In this document: piece after piece, positions 36,277-46,433 of the stretch
Layout: each line of letters starts with the position of its first letter
Numbering within the stretch: position 1 is the stretch's first letter
Source of the DNA: a virus
Taxonomy: Duplodnaviria > Caudoviricetes
Virus record (IMG/VR): IMGVR_UViG_3300032038_000001
Coordinates: 128,001 to 192,000 of that record
DNA length: 64,000 nucleotides
Direction: 5' to 3' (one strand)
Notes under the pieces: generated by a model
Databases searched by the model: none
The model's input: only the letters and a program-made list of their open reading frames with translations
Told to the model about the DNA's origin: nothing
Made by a program: the position numbers and the translations under genes

Positions 36277-36315
36277 CGTAAAATAAAAAATTATAATGAT
36301 ATATTATATATGTGT
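36277..36315 (+). promoter_or_regulatory. early-type phage promoter
   Basis: CGTA-N17-GATATATTAT-N4-GTGT. Confidence 0.6.
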
Positions 36316-36587
36316 AATAAGAAGATTATAAGCCACGTATAATCTTCACCCAGATAAACTAAGTTTAACATCAGACTGCAGCTGATGTAGAAATCTTAAA
36401 TTATGATGCTCGTGGCTTGCCGGCTTACATAATTTGAGATTCACTTAGTTATATTATATCGAAAAAGGAGTGAAAAGGTAGTTATATTATATCGAAAAAG
36501 GAGTGAAAAGGATGATTAATAGAATCAAAATTCCCTGATTAGACCGCACGTATTAATATCAATTAATACGTGCGGTCTTCTTTTTTT
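36312..36587 (+). ncRNA. candidate structured RNA with kissing-loop pseudoknot and 8-codon mini-ORF
   Basis: Own promoter and terminator (36541-36587); loops AGCCACG (36331-36337) and CGTGGCT (36411-36417) are complementary; several perfect stems. Confidence 0.65.
36446..36511 (+). repeat. perfect 33-bp tandem duplication containing an SD sequence
   Basis: TAGTTATATTATATCGAAAAAGGAGTGAAAAGG twice. Confidence 0.95.
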
Positions 36588-37584: not shown

Positions 37585-40575
37585 TTACAGCATAACAGTT
37601 CCAGTGGTAGAACTATTATTATCAGTGTTAGTGCTTTCATCATATGTTCTCTTATTGATATCAATTTCGAGAATAGCACGCTTCTGAAGACCTCTAAATA
37701 CAACTGCAACATAACAGTGTAAAATAGAACGATCAAACTCCCACTTATTAACTCTAAATTCTACATCAATTGAAAGAACCTTAGAACCAGTCCAATCAGA
37801 GAACTTAGCTTTTTCAAATGCAGAGAAGTGCTCTCTTTCACTTGCATCAGCAAAGTCATAGAGTCTACTATGAATATCTGTTTCAATTATTCTCTTGATT
37901 GCATAGAGAGTAAATACATTATTCTCCTCAGAGAGGTCAGTCAGATCAGTCTGTGCTGTTGTCTGAGTAGCTCTCTGGAATACATTATCATCAAGAGTCT
38001 CAAAATAGTTGAAGTTATTCTGATACAGCTCTTCCTTGAGATCAGCCTCATAGTCTTCAATAGAGGGCTCGAGAGTATCTCTAATATGACCAGTAAGCTG
38101 TGCCTTTGCTTTAACCATAGGAATATGAGTTCCATAGTTAATAACATGATCAGCAAACTGCTGAGCAAGGAAATAAGTAATAGAAACCTTAACTCTCTTC
38201 TGAGAAGGAGTTTCTCTTACCATGAAGTGTTGTGTATTCTTCGAGATCAGGCAATGATTATCAATACCAGTCTTATCAGAACCTATAGTACTGAATACAG
38301 CATAATCACGAATGAGGCTAGCGATATTAGACTTAGAGAACGACTCCATTTCAATACCACAGTCGAGATACAGAGGAGCATCATTTCTTACAACTACAAG
38401 TTCTGCAAGAACCTGCTTAACCTCATAACTATAGTTTGCATCAAACCATGCAGTAACAGGAATTCTTCTTGAAGAAAGAATCTTTCTATCAAAAGTGCCA
38501 TTAAATGCATTCTTATAGCATTCATCAATTTCCTGTGCTACCGTCCACTGTGTAACATCAGTAGTGCATTCCTTACCATCTTCATAGTAATACTTGGAAG
38601 CATTAGTATTTATAGGTTCAACACCTTCTGTAACACCATCTTCACGATAATACTTTGTTACAGTAACAGTCTTATCAGGATCAGTATCTTCAACACGAGT
38701 AAGTTCACCAGCTTCAATCTTAGCTGTAACTTCTTCTGTGTTAACAACTTCGTCTTCCTTTGTTACAGTCTTGGTTACATAATCACCAACAACTACAGAG
38801 ATGCCAGTAACTTCACCGATCTTAATCTGTGTTTCAGCATCAAAAGGAACTTCTGTCTTGGTTACATAATCACCAACATTTACGGTGATACCAGTAACAT
38901 CGCTAATCTTGATCTGTGTTGCAGGATCAAAAGGATCAGCATCATTAGCTACAACTTTAAGAGCACCAGCATCACCAGAAGCGGCTACAGCATATACTGT
39001 TTTACCAGTATAGTCATTAGCTACAACTTCAAGAGCACCTTCAGTCGTGGATGTAGCCGTTGCAAATGTAACAACATCAACTTGAACAATTGTGCCATCA
39101 GCATTGTAATGTGTATAAACAGGAATAGTAGCTGTACCACTATTGATATAATAGCTATTATCACTTGAATCTACAAATTTAACGATTGTTGCGGGAACTT
39201 CAACTTCCTTAGGGAATACAGTTTCTCCCTCTGCATCAACTGCAACGGTCTTCGAAGTTACAATGAATCCATCAGTATCAAGAATTCTGGGATTATCAAA
39301 GTAACCATTTGTACCATAGTTTACTCCAACACCCTTTACGTCGCCAAATGAAGACATAAGCTTTGTTGTAGTATAATCTGCAGGGTTTGCACCAGCAGGA
39401 ATACCACCCTTCGGAACCTCTGAAGGATACATGATACAAGGAAGCAGTTCATTGCTTGCAACCTTCTTTGCGAAGATCGGGTCAAACTCGTCAATGTCAA
39501 TAATATTATCAGGATCAGAATCCTTTATCATCGACATTAATTTCTGAAGTTCTGATACAGCATCAGAGAGCTTTACATCATTACCGTCAGCATCCTTTGC
39601 GATAATACCGGTAGGAACTCTCTCACTACCATTAACCATATTGGTAAGTGACTCTCTGCTAATAGATACGTTTGCAAAAATTTCAGCATACTTAGCAAAT
39701 GTCTCATCATACTCTGCCTCAAGTAAAGGATTGAGTTCAGTAAGGAATGATACATATGCATCGTATACATCTTCAACACCAGCTTCGTTCATGTAAATAT
39801 AAACCGGAATATCACCGATGTTGCTATTTTCAAGGATATCATTAATAAGAGTTGATGCATCATACTTAGATGATGAAACAACTGAACCAGTATAGGTTGC
39901 AATCTTGTTAAGGCCACCCTCATTGTTCATGATAACAAAATCATACATTTTGATACCATATTCTTTTTCATATGACTTATTTGTGTCAATATGAACAGAG
40001 TAGTTATCGCCGTACTTGCCTCTACCAGCAACACGGATACCCATAACAGGAGCCTGAGTGTATCCCTCGTTATCAATATACTTATCATTAACTAACTCTG
40101 TGCCATCAAGTTCAACATACTTCTTATTGAATGTTTTAGCATCACTGATACCTTCAAGGAACTTAACTGTGAACTTCAGACGGAAGCGTCTTTCACTAGC
40201 CTTAACAGTATCATTAGTTTCGTCAGCCTTATAATACAGAGAAATAACTGCATTAGAATATGTAGCATTCTCAGGCATTACACGCATACCCCATACATAA
40301 GTATTGGGCTTTCTCAGAAGTGCCAGAGGCATCATCAGAGGCTGACCATATTTCTTATAATTAGAAGTGCCATATGTCGATACAAAACTATCGTACGACG
40401 TTTTTCTTACAAATACATTGTCCACACCCTTAGATGAAACGAACGGAAATGCATAAGTTACTGAAGGATCAATTCTAGTATCGATATTTGTCTCAGCAAC
40501 CTTTGTATTATCATTGATTACAGTTTCAACGTACGGATATGAGTACTTAGGTACTATCTGTATAGATTGCGGCAT
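37585..40575 (-). CDS. contractile tail sheath protein with inserted repeat domain
   Basis: 996 aa; YPYVETVINDNT N-terminus, KKYGQP, GRGKYGD, FDANY, C-terminal sheath fold pattern; strong codon bias; AACA-N6-TA at 40644-40655. Confidence 0.82.
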   Translation of the reverse strand: MPQSIQIVPKYSYPYVETVINDNTKVAETNIDTRIDPSVTYAFPFVSSKGVDNVFVRKTSYDSFVSTYGTSNYKKYGQPLMMPLALLRKPNTYVWGMRVMPENATYSNAVISLYYKADETNDTVKASERRFRLKFTVKFLEGISDAKTFNKKYVELDGTELVNDKYIDNEGYTQAPVMGIRVAGRGKYGDNYSVHIDTNKSYEKEYGIKMYDFVIMNNEGGLNKIATYTGSVVSSSKYDASTLINDILENSNIGDIPVYIYMNEAGVEDVYDAYVSFLTELNPLLEAEYDETFAKYAEIFANVSISRESLTNMVNGSERVPTGIIAKDADGNDVKLSDAVSELQKLMSMIKDSDPDNIIDIDEFDPIFAKKVASNELLPCIMYPSEVPKGGIPAGANPADYTTTKLMSSFGDVKGVGVNYGTNGYFDNPRILDTDGFIVTSKTVAVDAEGETVFPKEVEVPATIVKFVDSSDNSYYINSGTATIPVYTHYNADGTIVQVDVVTFATATSTTEGALEVVANDYTGKTVYAVAASGDAGALKVVANDADPFDPATQIKISDVTGITVNVGDYVTKTEVPFDAETQIKIGEVTGISVVVGDYVTKTVTKEDEVVNTEEVTAKIEAGELTRVEDTDPDKTVTVTKYYREDGVTEGVEPINTNASKYYYEDGKECTTDVTQWTVAQEIDECYKNAFNGTFDRKILSSRRIPVTAWFDANYSYEVKQVLAELVVVRNDAPLYLDCGIEMESFSKSNIASLIRDYAVFSTIGSDKTGIDNHCLISKNTQHFMVRETPSQKRVKVSITYFLAQQFADHVINYGTHIPMVKAKAQLTGHIRDTLEPSIEDYEADLKEELYQNNFNYFETLDDNVFQRATQTTAQTDLTDLSEENNVFTLYAIKRIIETDIHSRLYDFADASEREHFSAFEKAKFSDWTGSKVLSIDVEFRVNKWEFDRSILHCYVAVVFRGLQKRAILEIDINKRTYDESTNTDNNSSTTGTVML

Positions 40576-40694
40576 AATCTATAAACCTCCTTTTAAATTT
40601 TTTATTAGTTATAGATTTTATAAAGTCTATAAATTATAGATTTTATATATTTGTTTTGAGGATTTATATAGGTTTTACTATAAAAAAATACTCA

Positions 40695-41429
40695 TCACAT
40701 TTTAATGATTTGTTCAATTGGGGACTGAGCTTCTGGGATCTTATCTCTAGACCTATTTAAAGATGAAGTAATCATACTGTCAATATCTTCAAATGTTACT
40801 GCGGTGAAAGTTGACGTGTATTGGCATATCTGTCGAACTGATGCCATTTTATAATCATATAACGATACACCTTTAGGGTCTTTACCAATTACATGAGCAA
40901 ATTTACTTGACGGATTATTTTTATCACGATATGATGCTGATAATATTAGTTCTTCAATAACTGAAGGAACACCGAGATTTACACCATTCATTTGTTGATT
41001 TTTTCTCCATAGAGTAATAGACTTATCATATGGAACCGATGCAGGTATTTTACCTTTAAGAATAAAGTCCAGATAAGTTTCAGCGTTTGTACTATCCTCA
41101 ATAACCGAACTTTCCATAACTTTATTACCATGGAAGAATTTTAAAACCTTACATGATACTGGAACAGGTTCTCCGGGTAATTCAACTCTTCGTATTTCAT
41201 AGTCATAGACATAAATGTTTATCCATGACGGAAGATTCAATATCTTCATTTCTTTTAATTGACCATTCTCATAAAAACCTATATTAAATATTCCAAGAAC
41301 TTTAATAACTTGACCAGCATCTTCTGCAAATTTACCTGATGTATCAAAATAATCCATTGGTATATAAAACTCACAGTATGGTCTTTCAAGATAAATAAAT
41401 TTTTGGTCTGATCTAAAATAACTACTCAT
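40695..41429 (-). CDS. probable RNA polymerase beta' C-terminal fragment (virion RNAP subunit)
   Basis: NGVNLGVPSVIEELILSASYRD and SVRQICQYTSTFTAVTFEDIDSMI resemble beta' C-terminal QGVKINDKHIEVIVRQM and region H ESFISAASFQET; late promoter at 41461-41472. Confidence 0.55.
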   Translation of the reverse strand: MSSYFRSDQKFIYLERPYCEFYIPMDYFDTSGKFAEDAGQVIKVLGIFNIGFYENGQLKEMKILNLPSWINIYVYDYEIRRVELPGEPVPVSCKVLKFFHGNKVMESSVIEDSTNAETYLDFILKGKIPASVPYDKSITLWRKNQQMNGVNLGVPSVIEELILSASYRDKNNPSSKFAHVIGKDPKGVSLYDYKMASVRQICQYTSTFTAVTFEDIDSMITSSLNRSRDKIPEAQSPIEQIIKM

Positions 41430-41545
41430 TTCTTATACCTCCTTTCACAAGAAGAGTTCTTAAGATTCTGTTTTATTTATCAATGATAATACAAAAAAAG
41501 AGAGATGAAGATATTGTCTTCATCTCTCTAAAAAATACTATATAT

Positions 41546-42808
41546 TTATTCTTCTATGTTGTCAGTTACTGAATTTTCGGGCTCATCAAAAGCCTCATCA
41601 GTAACGGTATCATCAATATCATTTTCTTCTTTCTTCTCAGGAAGCTGTTCCTTTATCATTTTATCAAGTGACTCATTCAAGTACTGTTGAAGTTCATCAG
41701 CAGATGCATTGGGATCATAATCAGTTATCTTCATTTCATTCATTTTATTAATAAGGAGTTCACGTCTCTCCTTATTGTAACGATTATCTGATTCAATTCT
41801 TGTTGGATGATTAGGTGCTGTTTCATTATTTTTCTCAAAATATTCTCTATATTCATCAAAGTAAGATACAACCTTTCTGATTATAGAAACAAAATTATCC
41901 TCTGATGTAGTTGAATCAAATCTATGATAAATAAGATTTGTCATAGATGTTACCATGGCATGTACATAGAGCTTATCAGTCTTATTATATGGATCATAAT
42001 GAACAACTGCTCTCATAAATATAAACAGGAAAAGATTATTAAAACAATGATATTCTTCCTCAAGGAAATTCTCCTCAAGATTTAAGAAATATCTATAAAG
42101 TTTATGGTCAAAACCAAACTTAATAATTTTCTTTTTATATCTATCAACAATTTCTTTTCCAAGTTTTGCATCAAAAAATGCATTCTTAATTGATTTAATT
42201 TCTTTAGAACCTATTGAATTAAATCTTTCGAAAATAAATGAAAGAGTTTGTGATGCTTCTATTGCATTTATTTCTCGCATCATCTTTCTTTTTTTACCCT
42301 CGTCAGACTCCTTTTCAACAGCTTCTTTTAATGTATTAAGACGCTGAATTCTAACTTCTTTTGCTTTAGATGATGATGCATAATTAAAATATTCTTCAAG
42401 TATTTCTTTCGAATCTTTACGAATATTATCAGCCTCAATCTTAGCCGAAAGAATATTTAATGAAGTCTCTTTAACAGCATCCATAACTTCTAATGGATCA
42501 TGTTCATCATTGATATTAATATTATATTTATGAGCTTTAAGAAACTTTGCAGCATCTTCTTTACTCATTTCCTTTATATCATTTTTAGTTATTGGAATTA
42601 TATCTATAAGCGTTTCCGGCTTAAGATCATATGCAGTATGAATTGTCTCTTCACCTAAAGACTTCAATGTTTTATACTGATCTTCCATTTCATTAATAAG
42701 ATCAACTATAACCTTATAATTCATAGGATTGGATTCATTTTCCTCTGAATTGATAATTTCTGAGTTAATGGTATTTTCTTCAATAGACATAATCATGTCT
42801 CCTTTCAA
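41546..42808 (-). CDS. hypothetical protein
   Basis: ~414-420 aa, AAAGGAG RBS. Confidence 0.7.
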   Translation of the reverse strand: MKGDMIMSIEENTINSEIINSEENESNPMNYKVIVDLINEMEDQYKTLKSLGEETIHTAYDLKPETLIDIIPITKNDIKEMSKEDAAKFLKAHKYNININDEHDPLEVMDAVKETSLNILSAKIEADNIRKDSKEILEEYFNYASSSKAKEVRIQRLNTLKEAVEKESDEGKKRKMMREINAIEASQTLSFIFERFNSIGSKEIKSIKNAFFDAKLGKEIVDRYKKKIIKFGFDHKLYRYFLNLEENFLEEEYHCFNNLFLFIFMRAVVHYDPYNKTDKLYVHAMVTSMTNLIYHRFDSTTSEDNFVSIIRKVVSYFDEYREYFEKNNETAPNHPTRIESDNRYNKERRELLINKMNEMKITDYDPNASADELQQYLNESLDKMIKEQLPEKKEENDIDDTVTDEAFDEPENSVTDNIEE

Positions 42809-42844
42809 TAAAAAATTATAGTAACGTTATAATGATAATAAAAC

Positions 42845-42883
42845 CGTATATTCAAAATAAATACATATATATTATTTTTTTGC
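42845..42883 (+). promoter_or_regulatory. early-type phage promoter
   Basis: CGTA-N17-TATATATTAT with identical spacing. Confidence 0.55.
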
Positions 42884-43114
42884 ATAAAAATAATACAAAT
42901 AAAAAATAATGGTTTTAGAGGATACGAACCATTATTCGTATTATTATCTATTTACGGGATACTTAAAAAAATAAGGAGGTGGATAAAATGTATCCTGATT
43001 TTAACGACACAGACATCGTGATTGAATAATTTCAATCACAACATGAAACCGTAAATAGATATGTAAAAAGATACAATATAATCGAGAGTAAAGATTATAT
43101 TGTATCTTTTTTTT
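42880..43114 (+). ncRNA. candidate structured RNA enclosing SD and 13-codon mini-ORF (MYPDFNDTDIVIE, 42988-43029)
   Basis: 13-bp stem 42945-42957/43049-43061 encloses AAGGAGGT and the ORF; 5' hairpin; terminator 43065-43114. Confidence 0.6.
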
Positions 43115-43115
43115 G

Positions 43116-43513
43116 TTAAAATCCGTTTATATTATTGAAAAAGCTCAGGTCTATAGAACCATCTGTATCATCGTCCATCTGTTCAATTATTTCTCCAGGT
43201 GTATTATTATAAACCGTGTTTTGAATTTCACCAGCTTTTACTAGTTTATATGTATCTTTCTGTGCTTTAATAGCAGCTTCTTTCATTAACTGTTCCCATT
43301 GTTTCTGTTGTTCTATTTGTTGCTCTTGTTTTTTTACCGACTCTATCAACCTAGGATCAACTAATGATGGATCGATTTCAGAAGCATGTTTCAATCCTTT
43401 ATTCTGTTCATCTTCGTTTAATTTACCTTTAATAATTCCAAATACAGGGAGATTATTACCATGATAGTAAACATAAAGGCACATTAGATAGCTCATTACA
43501 GAGTCATCATGAA
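43116..43513 (-). CDS. terL: terminase large subunit, exon 2
   Basis: Splicing restores AGPG-F-HDDSVMSY nuclease motif; spliced CDS 1732+398=2130 nt, 709 aa. Confidence 0.88.
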
Positions 43514-44701
43514 CAATATAGACTATATCATCATCTTCATATTCTATTATCAAATATGAAGAGCTCCCCATTTCGTTTTAATAGAATTACATATGGCTAA
43601 TATCACCATAAAACTAACCTATAAATAGGCACTACTCTACTCACTTCTTTACTTAAGTATTTCTCTTAAGCTATGCTTTCGATAGTCGTTGAACCTTGCT
43701 CTTAATAAGAGCCTTGGCTGCGGATTGTCTCTATTCTTAACCTTTTTACTATACCTAAGGAATTACCCTTCGCCACTAATATAAATATTAGTTTAGTAGT
43801 TAAGACCTAACGAGAGTTCCCCGCAATTAAAGGAGTTTATCCCGGTCCTCATGATGACTGTTTTTAATTTTTGATTTTATATATTTAACTCGTCCCCTAT
43901 TAAGTTCGGTATATTCCCAACCCATTTTTATCACCGTCTCTTTAACAGAATGATTTTTTAATAATCTTTCAATTTTTTTTATTTCTTCATATGATAAAAT
44001 GGAACTGAATTTTCTAATCTTTGGGAAATTGTAATTTTTACTAATAGATTTCCAGGTATCTCCACGCCTTATGTGTAATATAAAATCATACCCATATCCA
44101 TATTTAGCTTGGATTTTTTTAGGTGACATACCGGATTCTAAAAGTTCACATACTTTTTTAACATCTTGCTTTGTATGTGTAGATAAATTACATGTTTCAG
44201 AACCAACTATATTTGGACTTTTTAAACCATTTTTATATGCCCTAGAATTATTTTCTGAATAGGTACACCATTCTAAATTGTCTAATTTATAATTCATTTT
44301 ATTTCCATCCAGATGATCTATCACAGAATAATTGTGAGGATTTTCAATAAATGCGTTAGCAACTAGTCGGTGTATGGTTTTAGTTTTATATTTACCTTTT
44401 TTACCTAGTTGTATATTGATAGCCGGATATTGTAAACTTCTGGAGGATGGATTCATGTTAATCTTAAGTTTTTTATTAGTCTTAATATTATATACATTTC
44501 CATCCTGTGTTATCATATAATTCGTATCTTTATCATTTATAGTTATTATTTTACCAATGACACCATTTTCGAGTAATATTAATGATGAATAAAAACACGA
44601 ATCATAATTTCTGATAATATAAATATATGACATTAAATCAACTCCTATTAAATAATTATTGACTTGTTGTGCATGTATTTATCCAGATTACATTTTTTTT
44701 G
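43514..44701 (-). mobile_element. group I intron in terL (1188 nt), endonuclease ORF in the P1 loop
   Basis: P1 CCCGGUU/GACCGGG; 12-bp P10 AGUCAUCAUGAG/UUCAUGAUGACU; core closely similar to beta' intron 1. Confidence 0.9.
43827..44633 (-). CDS. intron-encoded HNH homing endonuclease
   Basis: YMITQDGNVYN, TIHRLVANAFI, IDHLDGNKMNYKLDNLEWCTYSEN; AGGAG RBS; internal AACA-N6-TA at 44657-44668. Confidence 0.9.
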   Translation of the reverse strand: MSYIYIIRNYDSCFYSSLILLENGVIGKIITINDKDTNYMITQDGNVYNIKTNKKLKINMNPSSRSLQYPAINIQLGKKGKYKTKTIHRLVANAFIENPHNYSVIDHLDGNKMNYKLDNLEWCTYSENNSRAYKNGLKSPNIVGSETCNLSTHTKQDVKKVCELLESGMSPKKIQAKYGYGYDFILHIRRGDTWKSISKNYNFPKIRKFSSILSYEEIKKIERLLKNHSVKETVIKMGWEYTELNRGRVKYIKSKIKNSHHEDRDKLL

Positions 44702-46433
44702 AACCGGGTCCGGCTTCAATTTTACCAGATGATGTCCTTATCAATCTCGATATATCTCTTGTTATGTTTTGAGTAATAAATTTTTCTTTATATTCTTGAA
44801 CATGTCTTACTAGAATAGCCATCATATCTTCACGAGATTTGGTACCTGTATAAACTCCATAATATGATTTCATTGATGCTTGTTTTTTAAGCATGGATTC
44901 AATAGTACCAGATGCTATCGCATTATCTTCAACTAAATCTTTAGCTCTATCATAATAAAGATTTGCACGTATTCTACTATTAAGAAGATGGTCTATAATA
45001 GAATCACCAACACTATTTCTTTCGATACATAATACTGCTCTAGGTAAAATACTTATTAGTTCTATAAGCAATGCCTCAAATTTTGTTTCACCAATATATG
45101 AACATTCAAATTCAGCTTCTACTTCTAACGTATATGGATTTAATATTGTAATAGCATTATTATCTCCGTTAGTTCCCGTTGAACAGTCAACGCCGATAAG
45201 ATAAGCTGTGCGTGGATTGAGTTTTTTGTATATATCAAATCTATAATATTCAAGTAACCACATTTCATCTATTGGTTTATGAGCAATCTCAATAAGATAT
45301 TGAATATCTTCTTGATTAAATGGAGAAAGTGATGAACCGTGTAATCTTTGAAGTAGTATTTCACGTCTTACTGTCAAGGGATCTCCAATTTTAGCAGATA
45401 TATTTTTTAACCAATCTTCAGTTAGTCCTATTTGATAATACTGATATTCTATATAAAGAATCTTGTTACAATCTTTACCTTGTGAATCTATGTATTCCTG
45501 TATTTCTTCTTCGGTCATATCATAAAGACGTTCGGTCCATTTAGCAGTCTTATCTAAAATCTCCTGTGCCTCTTGACCAGCGGGTGAATCAAGATCTCCA
45601 GGTGTGCTAGTAAATATACGAGCATACATAGCACCATTCGCTTTAGCTCTAGCTGCTGCAGTTTCATATGTGGATACTGAGTTTGCTACTATAGTTTTTA
45701 TATGAGGTGTAAACTCAGCCTCATCGAAATGCTGTATTGGCGATGTAAGACCTCTAGCTAATGATAATGCTGTATCATATGATGTTGCTTTAGCTTTAGT
45801 GATAATAGTATTACCATTTATAGGATGTCCCATTTTTGTAGCATTATTAGTTGCTTTTGTAACCTTGCCATCATCATCAGTAAATGATTCAAATCTTAAA
45901 TATTCAGGTAAAAATCTTATTTGGTCACCAGTTCTCTTAAGATTTGTTTTACTATCTTCACCTGATTTATTTATGTATATAAATTGAGATTGTGAAGTAC
46001 CAAATGAGTACATCCATGTTTCCATAGCAATTGCTGACTGCGTTTTACCTTGTTGACGTGTTAAATTTAACCACGAGTCTAAACCATGTAAAATACACCA
46101 TGCCTGTGCAATATTACCTCTATTTGCCTTATATGGCACAGCAGTACCACCTGGATCAGGAATTCTGGATATTTCACGAAGATAATACCAAGGATTTCTC
46201 ATACATTCTGTCATAATTCTAGTTATTTGATCTTGCGTTAAATTAGTATGACCATCAGGTCCAACAGAGAACGGGTTAATATTTACCAAACTATAATCAT
46301 ATATCTCAAGCATAAAATAGCAATTTTTGATTCCAACTGTTTGTAAATCTTTTGCAACCTGCAAAAATGACCTATTCTGTGTTCCTAAGTCATATAACTT
46401 ATCATCTATTCTTGCAATACGAGATTTAGCCAT
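44702..46433 (-). CDS. terL: terminase large subunit, exon 1
   Basis: Walker A TRQQGKT, Walker B HFDEAEF, motif III STPG, nuclease IGVDCSTG and IERNSVG. Confidence 0.92.

Follow-up and report, generated by a model that had tools for sequence, protein, structure and literature searches.

A conserved 13-codon early gene with a folded leader beside terL in an uncultured jumbo phage

The cIII protein of bacteriophage lambda is a small early protein of 54 aa, and its start region can form two mutually exclusive pairings, a switch that is shifted by RNase III; alternative structures of the cIII mRNA reportedly set translation initiation, a finding credited to Altuvia and co-workers in 1989. Phage T4 makes Stp, a 26-residue early peptide effector. 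CreT-type RNA toxins act through rare codons, the encoded peptide being irrelevant. A small ORF enclosed by long-range pairing, masked initiation and loop-loop contacts have been described for the type I toxin mRNAs of Helicobacter pylori aapA1 and of hok (PMC5416894, PMC6733600). In the PeSL cassettes, or morons, of T4-type phages, an early promoter and a stem-loop terminator bracket a small accessory ORF (PMC2839356). Phage AR9 uses the early promoter AAATATATATTAT-N6-G+1 with its virion RNA polymerase and the late promoter consensus AACA-N6-TA/G, and its early genes are set among late genes (PMC5312081).

We analyzed a window of 64,000 nucleotides, bases 128001-192000 of an IMG/VR record of 250,395 bp (G+C 31%), whose source is an uncultured giant (jumbo) phage. 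We class one intergenic cassette of this window as a microprotein early gene with a translation-masking leader; genes so short escape gene callers and protein databases. The phage shares with AR9 the early core TATATATTAT-N6-G+1 and the late form AAC[AG]-N6-TA (PMC5312081), but it is only distantly related, and what is encoded here is a peptide of 13 aa behind a folded leader of 106 nt. The cassette is bracketed by promoter and terminator in the manner of a PeSL and is likewise present in some relatives and absent from others; its promoter would serve a phage-encoded polymerase, whereas PeSL promoters are of the sigma-70 kind, and no evidence of recombination was found at its ends. The nearest RNA design is that of aapA1 and hok, as the RNA masks its initiation region with more than one upstream complementary strand; unlike in those systems, the peptide is acidic, and we found neither a dedicated antitoxin RNA nor evidence of activating 3' processing. 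With lambda cIII it has in common a small early phage protein and two possible start pairings, although switch and trigger are only hypothetical here. If the peptide acts on a host protein, Stp is the nearest functional precedent, but the window peptide is half its size and shows no sequence likeness. In combining a strong Shine-Dalgarno sequence (SD) with a mini-ORF, this small structured RNA recalls CreT; here, however, the peptide is conserved while the codons drift, and we therefore do not consider the RNA a decoy of the CreT type.

The locus and its transcription signals

The cassette fills a 307-bp gap (42809-43115) between two minus-strand genes. A sequence-only reading of the window had placed here an early, terminator-bounded, peptide-encoding small RNA that is antisense in orientation to late genes, and our analysis supports this placement. 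Promoter, hairpin, loop, stem, SD, ORF, stop hairpin and terminator were all found where that reading had located them. The features of the locus, in window coordinates unless stated otherwise, are as follows.

41546-42790, minus strand: 414-aa gene left of the gap, no known family
42817-42828, minus strand: late promoter AACG-N6-TA of the 414-aa gene, AR9-type form
42838-42851, plus strand: upstream element ATAAAACCGTA, located about 15-20 nt ahead of the promoter core
42866-42882, plus strand: early (virion RNA polymerase type) promoter TATATATTAT-N6-G, AR9 consensus
42882-43114, plus strand: predicted monocistronic early RNA of 233 nt, from promoter and terminator positions
42890-42944, plus strand: 5' hairpin domain (inner stem 42905-42914 / 42927-42936; outer helix 42890-42896 / 42938-42944)
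42945-42957 and 43049-43061, plus strand: 5' and 3' arms of a 13-bp clamp around SD, ORF and stop hairpin
42957-42962, plus strand: proximal anti-start strand GGAUAC, able to pair with GUAUCC at 42990-42995
42973-42981, plus strand: SD AAGGAGGUG (AAGGAGGT(G)), 6 nt before the AUG
42988-43029, plus strand: 13-codon ORF MYPDFNDTDIVIE plus stop, 42 bases
43018-43039, plus strand: 9-bp stop-codon hairpin (arms 43018-43026 / 43031-43039; TAA in the 4-nt loop)
43065-43114, both strands: bidirectional intrinsic terminator (A5, 14-bp stem extended to 19 bp, T8)
43116-43571, minus strand: ORF right of the gap, taken as terL exon 2 (stop codon 43116-43118)
Genome positions 103342(+), 133773(-), 91527(-) and 14530(-): leader-cassette promoters with ATAAAACCGTA

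Beyond the putative terL exon 2 lie an HNH endonuclease match (43827-44633) and a terminase match (44688-46433). On the other side, the 414-aa gene is followed in the same minus-strand block by genes for a virion protein and for the tail sheath. AAC[AG]-N6-TA in this block matches the AR9 late consensus, and on this ground it is reasonable to label the neighbors of the small RNA as late genes, an assignment made from sequence. The same motif also precedes structural genes, with starts at 40575 (sheath), 41429, 51736, 12233, 63132 and 28350, and the late promoter of the 414-aa gene is conserved in relatives. This promoter stands back to back with the early one, and the late mRNA would therefore run clear of the small RNA. 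Against cultured phages, tblastn found no match for the 414-aa protein, the sheath or the long form of the small protein described below, and megablast and blastn searches with the region returned unrelated short matches only. By analogy with AR9, a phage whose sheath and 414-aa protein have no detectable similarity to those of cultured phages thus seems to use promoters of both AR9 classes.

The early-type promoter recognized in the sequence-only reading is an exact core match to the AR9 early consensus, with TATATATTAT at 42866-42875, then T6 and the predicted start G at 42882. A strict regular expression for this promoter matches the genome at 23 sites, mostly ahead of an SD and an ORF; by our own base-composition estimate, about half as many matches would be expected by chance. 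The match count alone is weak, and the promoter claim is therefore carried by a 19-nt identity and by conservation in relatives. The 19-nt string, TATATATTATTTTTTTGCA, recurs twice in the genome, approximately 35-45 nt before an SD and start codon; both other copies precede real genes, and one of these, directly behind its copy, is one of the two RNA polymerase beta-like genes of the genome. In relatives, TATA[TC]AT[TC]AT-N6-G is kept at the same place. We infer an early-promoter role for TATATATTAT by analogy with AR9, which is distant from these phages. The upstream element is retained in nearly all relatives of the cassette, and ATAAAACCGTA(A/T)A is located approximately 15-20 nt upstream of TATATAT(T/A)AT both here and at the four leader-cassette promoters. 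It may represent an extended element of one early-promoter subclass.

The terminator (stem 43070-43083 / 43093-43106, then T8) is common to the small RNA and the converging terL exon 2, and relatives have a terminator at the same position that is again shared with terL. A simple scan for sigma-70 promoters and terminators picked up neither the phage promoter nor the AT-rich terminator.

The encoded peptide is conserved among relatives

We used the 414-aa neighbor, which has 81 metagenomic homologues, to fetch approximately 45 loci (individual relatives are given below by locus number). About 25 related phages from metagenomes carry a small early gene at this spot, likewise lying between terL and the 414-aa gene, in the same orientation and with early promoter and terminator. 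It is 12-16 aa long in the closer relatives and approximately 50 aa in the outer clades. An exact SD plus peptide pattern scan of IMG/VR recovered one close relative and nothing more. The family is held together by the motif aromatic-x-[DE][DE]-T-V-[IL]; the window peptide matches it more loosely than most members (F-N-D-T-D-I-V), with D replacing V after T. Short peptides at the syntenic position include MFPSTEDTIIGSDD, MFPSFDDTDIIIFDD, MWPSVEDTVIEIE, MDLDDTVIIEAED, MDTNDTVIIEWDD, MGPILFEDTVVLD, MFFGEDEVVLLD and MFFGED[SE]VV... More distant relatives, with 44-61% identity in the neighbor protein, have another leader sequence but the same layout of promoter motif, strong SD, 12-16-codon ORF and terL-shared terminator. 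Conservation at the peptide level spans a clade of uncultured gut and rumen jumbo phages.

The closest relative, L005, has a neighbor protein that is 95% identical and a gap that is near-identical to that of the window. Between the two, the ORF carries differences at 9 of its 42 bases, of which seven are third codon positions, compared with 8 of 231 bases in the flanks (ORF versus flank, Fisher p = 2e-4). Five of the changed codons are synonymous and two are not (T to C, E to D). The ORFs of L014 and L050 differ by three changes, all synonymous, and those of L015 and L052 by four synonymous and two non-synonymous changes. The comparison shows that the mini-ORF is a real conserved gene under peptide-level selection, and very likely the ORF is translated and its peptide is the object of selection.

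These substitutions also bear on an RNA-centered device, in which the RNA itself would be the effector, either as a ribosome or 30S decoy acting via its SD or as a trans regulator acting via the GGAUAC loops, with an ORF that is incidental or serves ribosome loading. The SD strings AAGGAGGTG / AGGAGGTG indeed occur only once in the 250-kb genome, at the mini-ORF; the fold is very stable (see below); the non-coding parts are more conserved between the window and L005 than the wobble positions of the ORF; and the genome contains another, different mini-gene RNA. Yet the peptide motif is kept across lineages while the codons drift, long forms keep it although their SDs are ordinary and their leaders open, the window and L005 retain no repeated rare codon in common, and titration of ribosomes by one RNA species is itself improbable. 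Such a device is unlikely, and we drop the ribosome decoy offered by the sequence-only reading, given that the peptide is conserved with synonymous drift and no rare-codon pattern is kept. The other mini-gene RNA, at 36299-36587, was considered as a paralogue and rejected since its design and its peptide are different.

Two arrangements in relatives may be recorded here. In L018 (745-1401, minus strand), an early gene of about 150 aa, which starts MDIEKIIKLIDEF..., lies between the promoter and the mini-ORF MDEKEVIIDLSDTCIG, giving a two-gene early operon. In seven relatives (L020, L021, L022, L028, L039, L040 and L043) the terminase gene is oppositely oriented beside the 414-aa homologue, and its frame breaks into a structured-looking stretch, CCTACCGAGGCGA..., perhaps another intron.

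Predicted pairing of the leader with the start region

The small RNA has a predicted folding energy of -64.9 kcal/mol, compared with -30.2 +/- 3.8 kcal/mol for dinucleotide shuffles (z = -9.2), and z remains at -5.5 without the terminator; the reverse strand of 42882-43114 folds as well, and the energy of the window RNA alone gives no strand. All 13 of 13 short-form transcripts, taken without their terminators, exceed dinucleotide shuffles in structure (z = -2.4 to -8.5), with the sense strand being more stable than the antisense strand in 11 of them. Measured against shuffles in the window, the 13-bp clamp has p = 0.010, the complementarity between untranslated region and start p = 0.027, and the pairing of the 5' hairpin loop with the start (-10.5 kcal/mol) p = 0.0095. 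The parts named in the sequence-only reading thus jointly exceed chance in fold, clamp and loop-start pairing. A scan of 40000-46000 with Rfam covariance models (E <= 1) gave no match.

The optimal fold contains the 5' hairpin domain, with inner arms AATAATGGTT (42905-42914) and AACCATTATT (42927-42936). Its loop AGGAUAC (42919-42925) is complementary to GUAUCCU at the ORF start (42990-42996), and together with the proximal GGAUAC this makes two strands that are complementary to the start region. The GGAUAC/GUAUCC helix is absent from the nearest-neighbor optimum of the window RNA, and forcing it costs 3-4 kcal/mol. In the window model, the AUG instead falls within a weak A-U hairpin, and GUAUCCUG is displayed in the 8-nt loop of that hairpin (57% of the ensemble). 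This modeled loop would suit a loop-loop contact with the 5' hairpin, a type of contact beyond the programs' scoring. The start region has a probability of being unpaired of 0.61 in the window RNA, which amounts to moderate occlusion only.

We compared the start regions of the short-form lineages. Upstream of the SD, the leaders of ten independent lineages show more complementarity to ORF positions -3 to +12 than their shuffled versions do (Fisher combined p = 2.5e-8), and the leaders are also complementary to the stop-codon region, where the clamp forms (combined p = 1e-3). The pairings are as follows.

Anti-start helix, window: GGAUAC/GUAUCC
Anti-start helix, L007: GGAAACAU/AUGUUUCC
Anti-start helix, L009: CACAUA/UAUGUG
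Anti-start helix, L023: GUACAUAG/CUAUGUAC
Anti-start helix, L052: AAAGAACAU/AUGUUCUUU
Clamp, L007: CUCAGUCA/UGACUGAG
Clamp, L049: UUAGUCGUC/GACGACUAA
Clamp, L009: CUCUUACUC/GAGUAAGAG
Loop and start strand, window: AGGAUAC / GUAUCCU, p = 0.0095 versus shuffled loops
Loop and start strand, L007: AGAUGGAAAU / (G)UUUCCAUC, p = 0.0075 versus shuffled loops
Loop and start strand, L009: UGGCCA / UGGCCA, p = 0.026 versus shuffled loops
Loop and start strand, L049: UGACGG / CCGUCA, p = 0.11 versus shuffled loops

The 5' hairpin loop is complementary to codons 2-4 in three of these lineages (window, L007 and L009; combined p = 1.8e-4) and more weakly in a fourth, L049. In L013 and L015 the SD itself is paired. 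Substitutions agree with the pairings: a T-A pair in the 5' hairpin is replaced by C-G between the window and L005, and the sole leader difference between L014 and L050 (A to U) is matched in the paired strand by a synonymous change of codon 3, turning an anti-start A-U pair into U-A. RNAalifold returns the proximal GGAUAC/GUAUCC helix as the consensus of five long-leader sequences but no consensus structure for the 60-nt start regions of nine lineages, because the pairing strands are in different registers between clades. The masking of the start region is probably functional, and the leaders constitute a natural series of start-masking structures with compensatory changes that should be useful for studying how very short messages are stabilized and gated.

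The sequence-only reading had GTATCCT choosing between two partners. Both are complementary to it, and the loop strand recurs in L007 and L009 and, less strongly, in L049, but the proximal helix is suboptimal by the 3-4 kcal/mol given above. The two anti-start strands may compete as a switch; that they form a real one is a tentative proposal, which we would sooner doubt than adopt. The same reading had named the loss of both peptide and pairings in relatives as an outcome that would count against it, and we find both conserved. Its extension to a single phage-wide translational control system does not hold: most of the other 22 motif-bearing early genes are without complementarity between untranslated region and start (three at p < 0.05, only one of these at p < 0.01), long-form relatives have short open leaders, and only ATAAAACCGTA is common to this cassette and the leader cassettes. 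Leaders of long forms measure 29-36 nt and are open, with a start accessibility of 0.42-0.79; those of short forms measure 44-109 nt. AAGGAGGTG is kept by most short-form relatives, and long forms have ordinary SDs.

The 3' end of the coding part invites a second explanation, in which the mini-ORF encodes a cis-acting leader peptide: its translation, possibly with ribosomes stalling at the acidic motif, would remodel clamp or terminator and so set antisense read-through into terL. The clamp 3' arm covers the stop codon in L007, L049 and L009, the terminator stem of L023 begins at the stop codon, and the window stop codon lies in a hairpin loop. That stop-codon hairpin, however, is specific to the window lineage, the corresponding place in L007, L049 and L009 having none; the window terminator begins approximately 40 nt past the stop, too far for a terminating ribosome to reach; motif and stop are 2 to 18 residues apart in different members of the family, which misfits a fixed stall site; and long forms keep the motif without such a layout. 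Since nothing but the antisense of terL exon 2 is downstream on the plus strand, the RNA is not a classical attenuator, and we regard the leader-peptide explanation as quite improbable.

The likeness of the clamp to those of hok and aapA1 raises the further question of a type I toxin-like module, in which the mRNA of a harmful peptide would be caged and silenced by its own fold and by antisense RNA from late terL read-through. A small ORF, a long-range clamp, sequestered initiation and successive upstream complementary strands are all found in those mRNAs (PMC5416894, PMC6733600), and convergent terL transcripts share the terminator with the small RNA. The clamp, however, does not bring the 5' end of the RNA together with its 3' end, and MYPDFNDTDIVIE is acidic and hydrophilic, with a net charge of -4 and no hydrophobic or membrane span. 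Inspection by eye revealed no late or early promoter motif on the minus strand of 42882-43114, although terL read-through could still provide an antisense RNA. We consider a toxin-like module very unlikely.

Long forms and a proposed origin of the short gene

The long forms (49-55 aa, with L053 at 65 aa) have a basic N-terminal part and an acidic tail of the form ...DDDDW[LC]DDTVL..., with ends such as ..WLDDTVLVED, ..WCDDTVLGD and ..WWESDTVII. There is one intermediate form of 27 aa and one member with the motif in mid-protein. MAFFT places the short peptides on the long-form tail; the peptides are too short for a significant alignment, and the proposed homology of short and long forms rests on synteny and a motif of 5-7 residues. 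Pfam and PHROG searches with long forms gave nothing below E = 0.02. A profile search of 1.8 billion representative proteins produced nine matches, all of 50-83 aa except one of 1380 aa, and none of the nine fuses the family to a known domain. The 1380-aa protein was matched in eight separate stretches and taken as spurious acidic repeats. AlphaFold2 gave no confident model of a long form (pLDDT 50). We also searched the other proteins of the genome for the motif, and the only other C-terminal match, NDTVII at genome positions 42747-43100 (+), was rejected as chance; it is located outside the window, in an ORF of 117 aa that runs antisense to a gene of 232 aa.

We placed the two forms on a tree of the neighbor protein, a quick maximum-likelihood tree with midpoint root for which a careful search was not finished. 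The short forms fall into a group of nine (SH-aLRT 88), a group of three (97) and one single row, and the short and long labels require two changes on the tree compared with a mean of 11.3 after shuffling. The clade that joins the outside of the group with all short forms contains long forms only. On this quick midpoint-rooted tree, the simplest reading is that long forms are ancestral and were probably reduced to short ones. Some relatives are without the cassette, and terL there abuts the neighbor gene; the cassette is therefore accessory and dispensable for the basic life cycle.

Reduction and loss would also fit a decaying remnant, that is, a functionless leftover of the 50-aa gene whose structure merely reflects the terL terminator and the promoter spacing. 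Against decay, short forms persist through a clade with approximately one change per site on the neighbor protein branches, the ORF shows third-position drift and a kept ATG behind an SD string unique in the genome, and the structure z-scores are significant after removal of the terminator. It is highly improbable that the cassette is such a remnant.

Our preferred explanation, which we consider reasonably probable as a whole, is a small early gene cassette in which an extended promoter and a structured leader precede a 13-codon gene, with a terminator after it. As judged from the motif, a virion-type phage RNA polymerase would start at G 42882 and stop at the shared terminator, yielding the 233-nt RNA. 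Comparison with relatives shows the 13-codon gene to be the minimal form of the family, the window clade having kept only the tail motif as a free peptide of 12-16 aa, and the shrunken gene would have gained the strongest ribosome-binding site of the genome together with a long folded leader. This leader would pair with the start region (in two lineages with the SD) and clamp the coding part. Such a fold may protect a message too short for ribosome cover and gate initiation, with the 5' hairpin domain, the clamp and the terminator as the armor of the RNA. The SD would remain open in an A-rich loop, and a bound 30S subunit could melt the short helix or the loop-loop contact to reach the AUG. 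In relatives in which the clamp covers the stop codon, a translating ribosome would open the clamp and could keep translated copies open. The leader of approximately 106 nt (42882-42987) and the 42-nt mini-ORF together are about as long as a long-form gene of 150-160 nt, and we speculate that the folded leader is made of recycled remains of the lost N-terminal coding part.

The weakest step of the preferred explanation concerns the peptide, which has a net charge of -4; it may act as a short linear motif and, in the form of an acidic beta-strand, dock early in infection on a protein of the host or of the phage. The fullest version, in which a free 12-16-residue peptide stripped from a 50-aa protein is expressed from a caged RNA with a start alternating between proximal strand and kissing loop, and acts as a host-takeover or anti-defense effector by beta-strand docking, is possible but distinctly doubtful. 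If the stripped-peptide reading is true, the gene is among the smallest autonomous conserved phage genes. The cassette offers a testable case of a microprotein effector and of a protein reduced to its interaction motif; a synthetic peptide is feasible, making a direct search for the target possible.

Finally, the 65-aa protein of L053, encoded on the minus strand upstream of the 414-aa homologue, has a hydrophobic, possibly membrane-spanning middle and ends with a variant of the motif, ...LLLDDTTLWY; a second small gene follows it.
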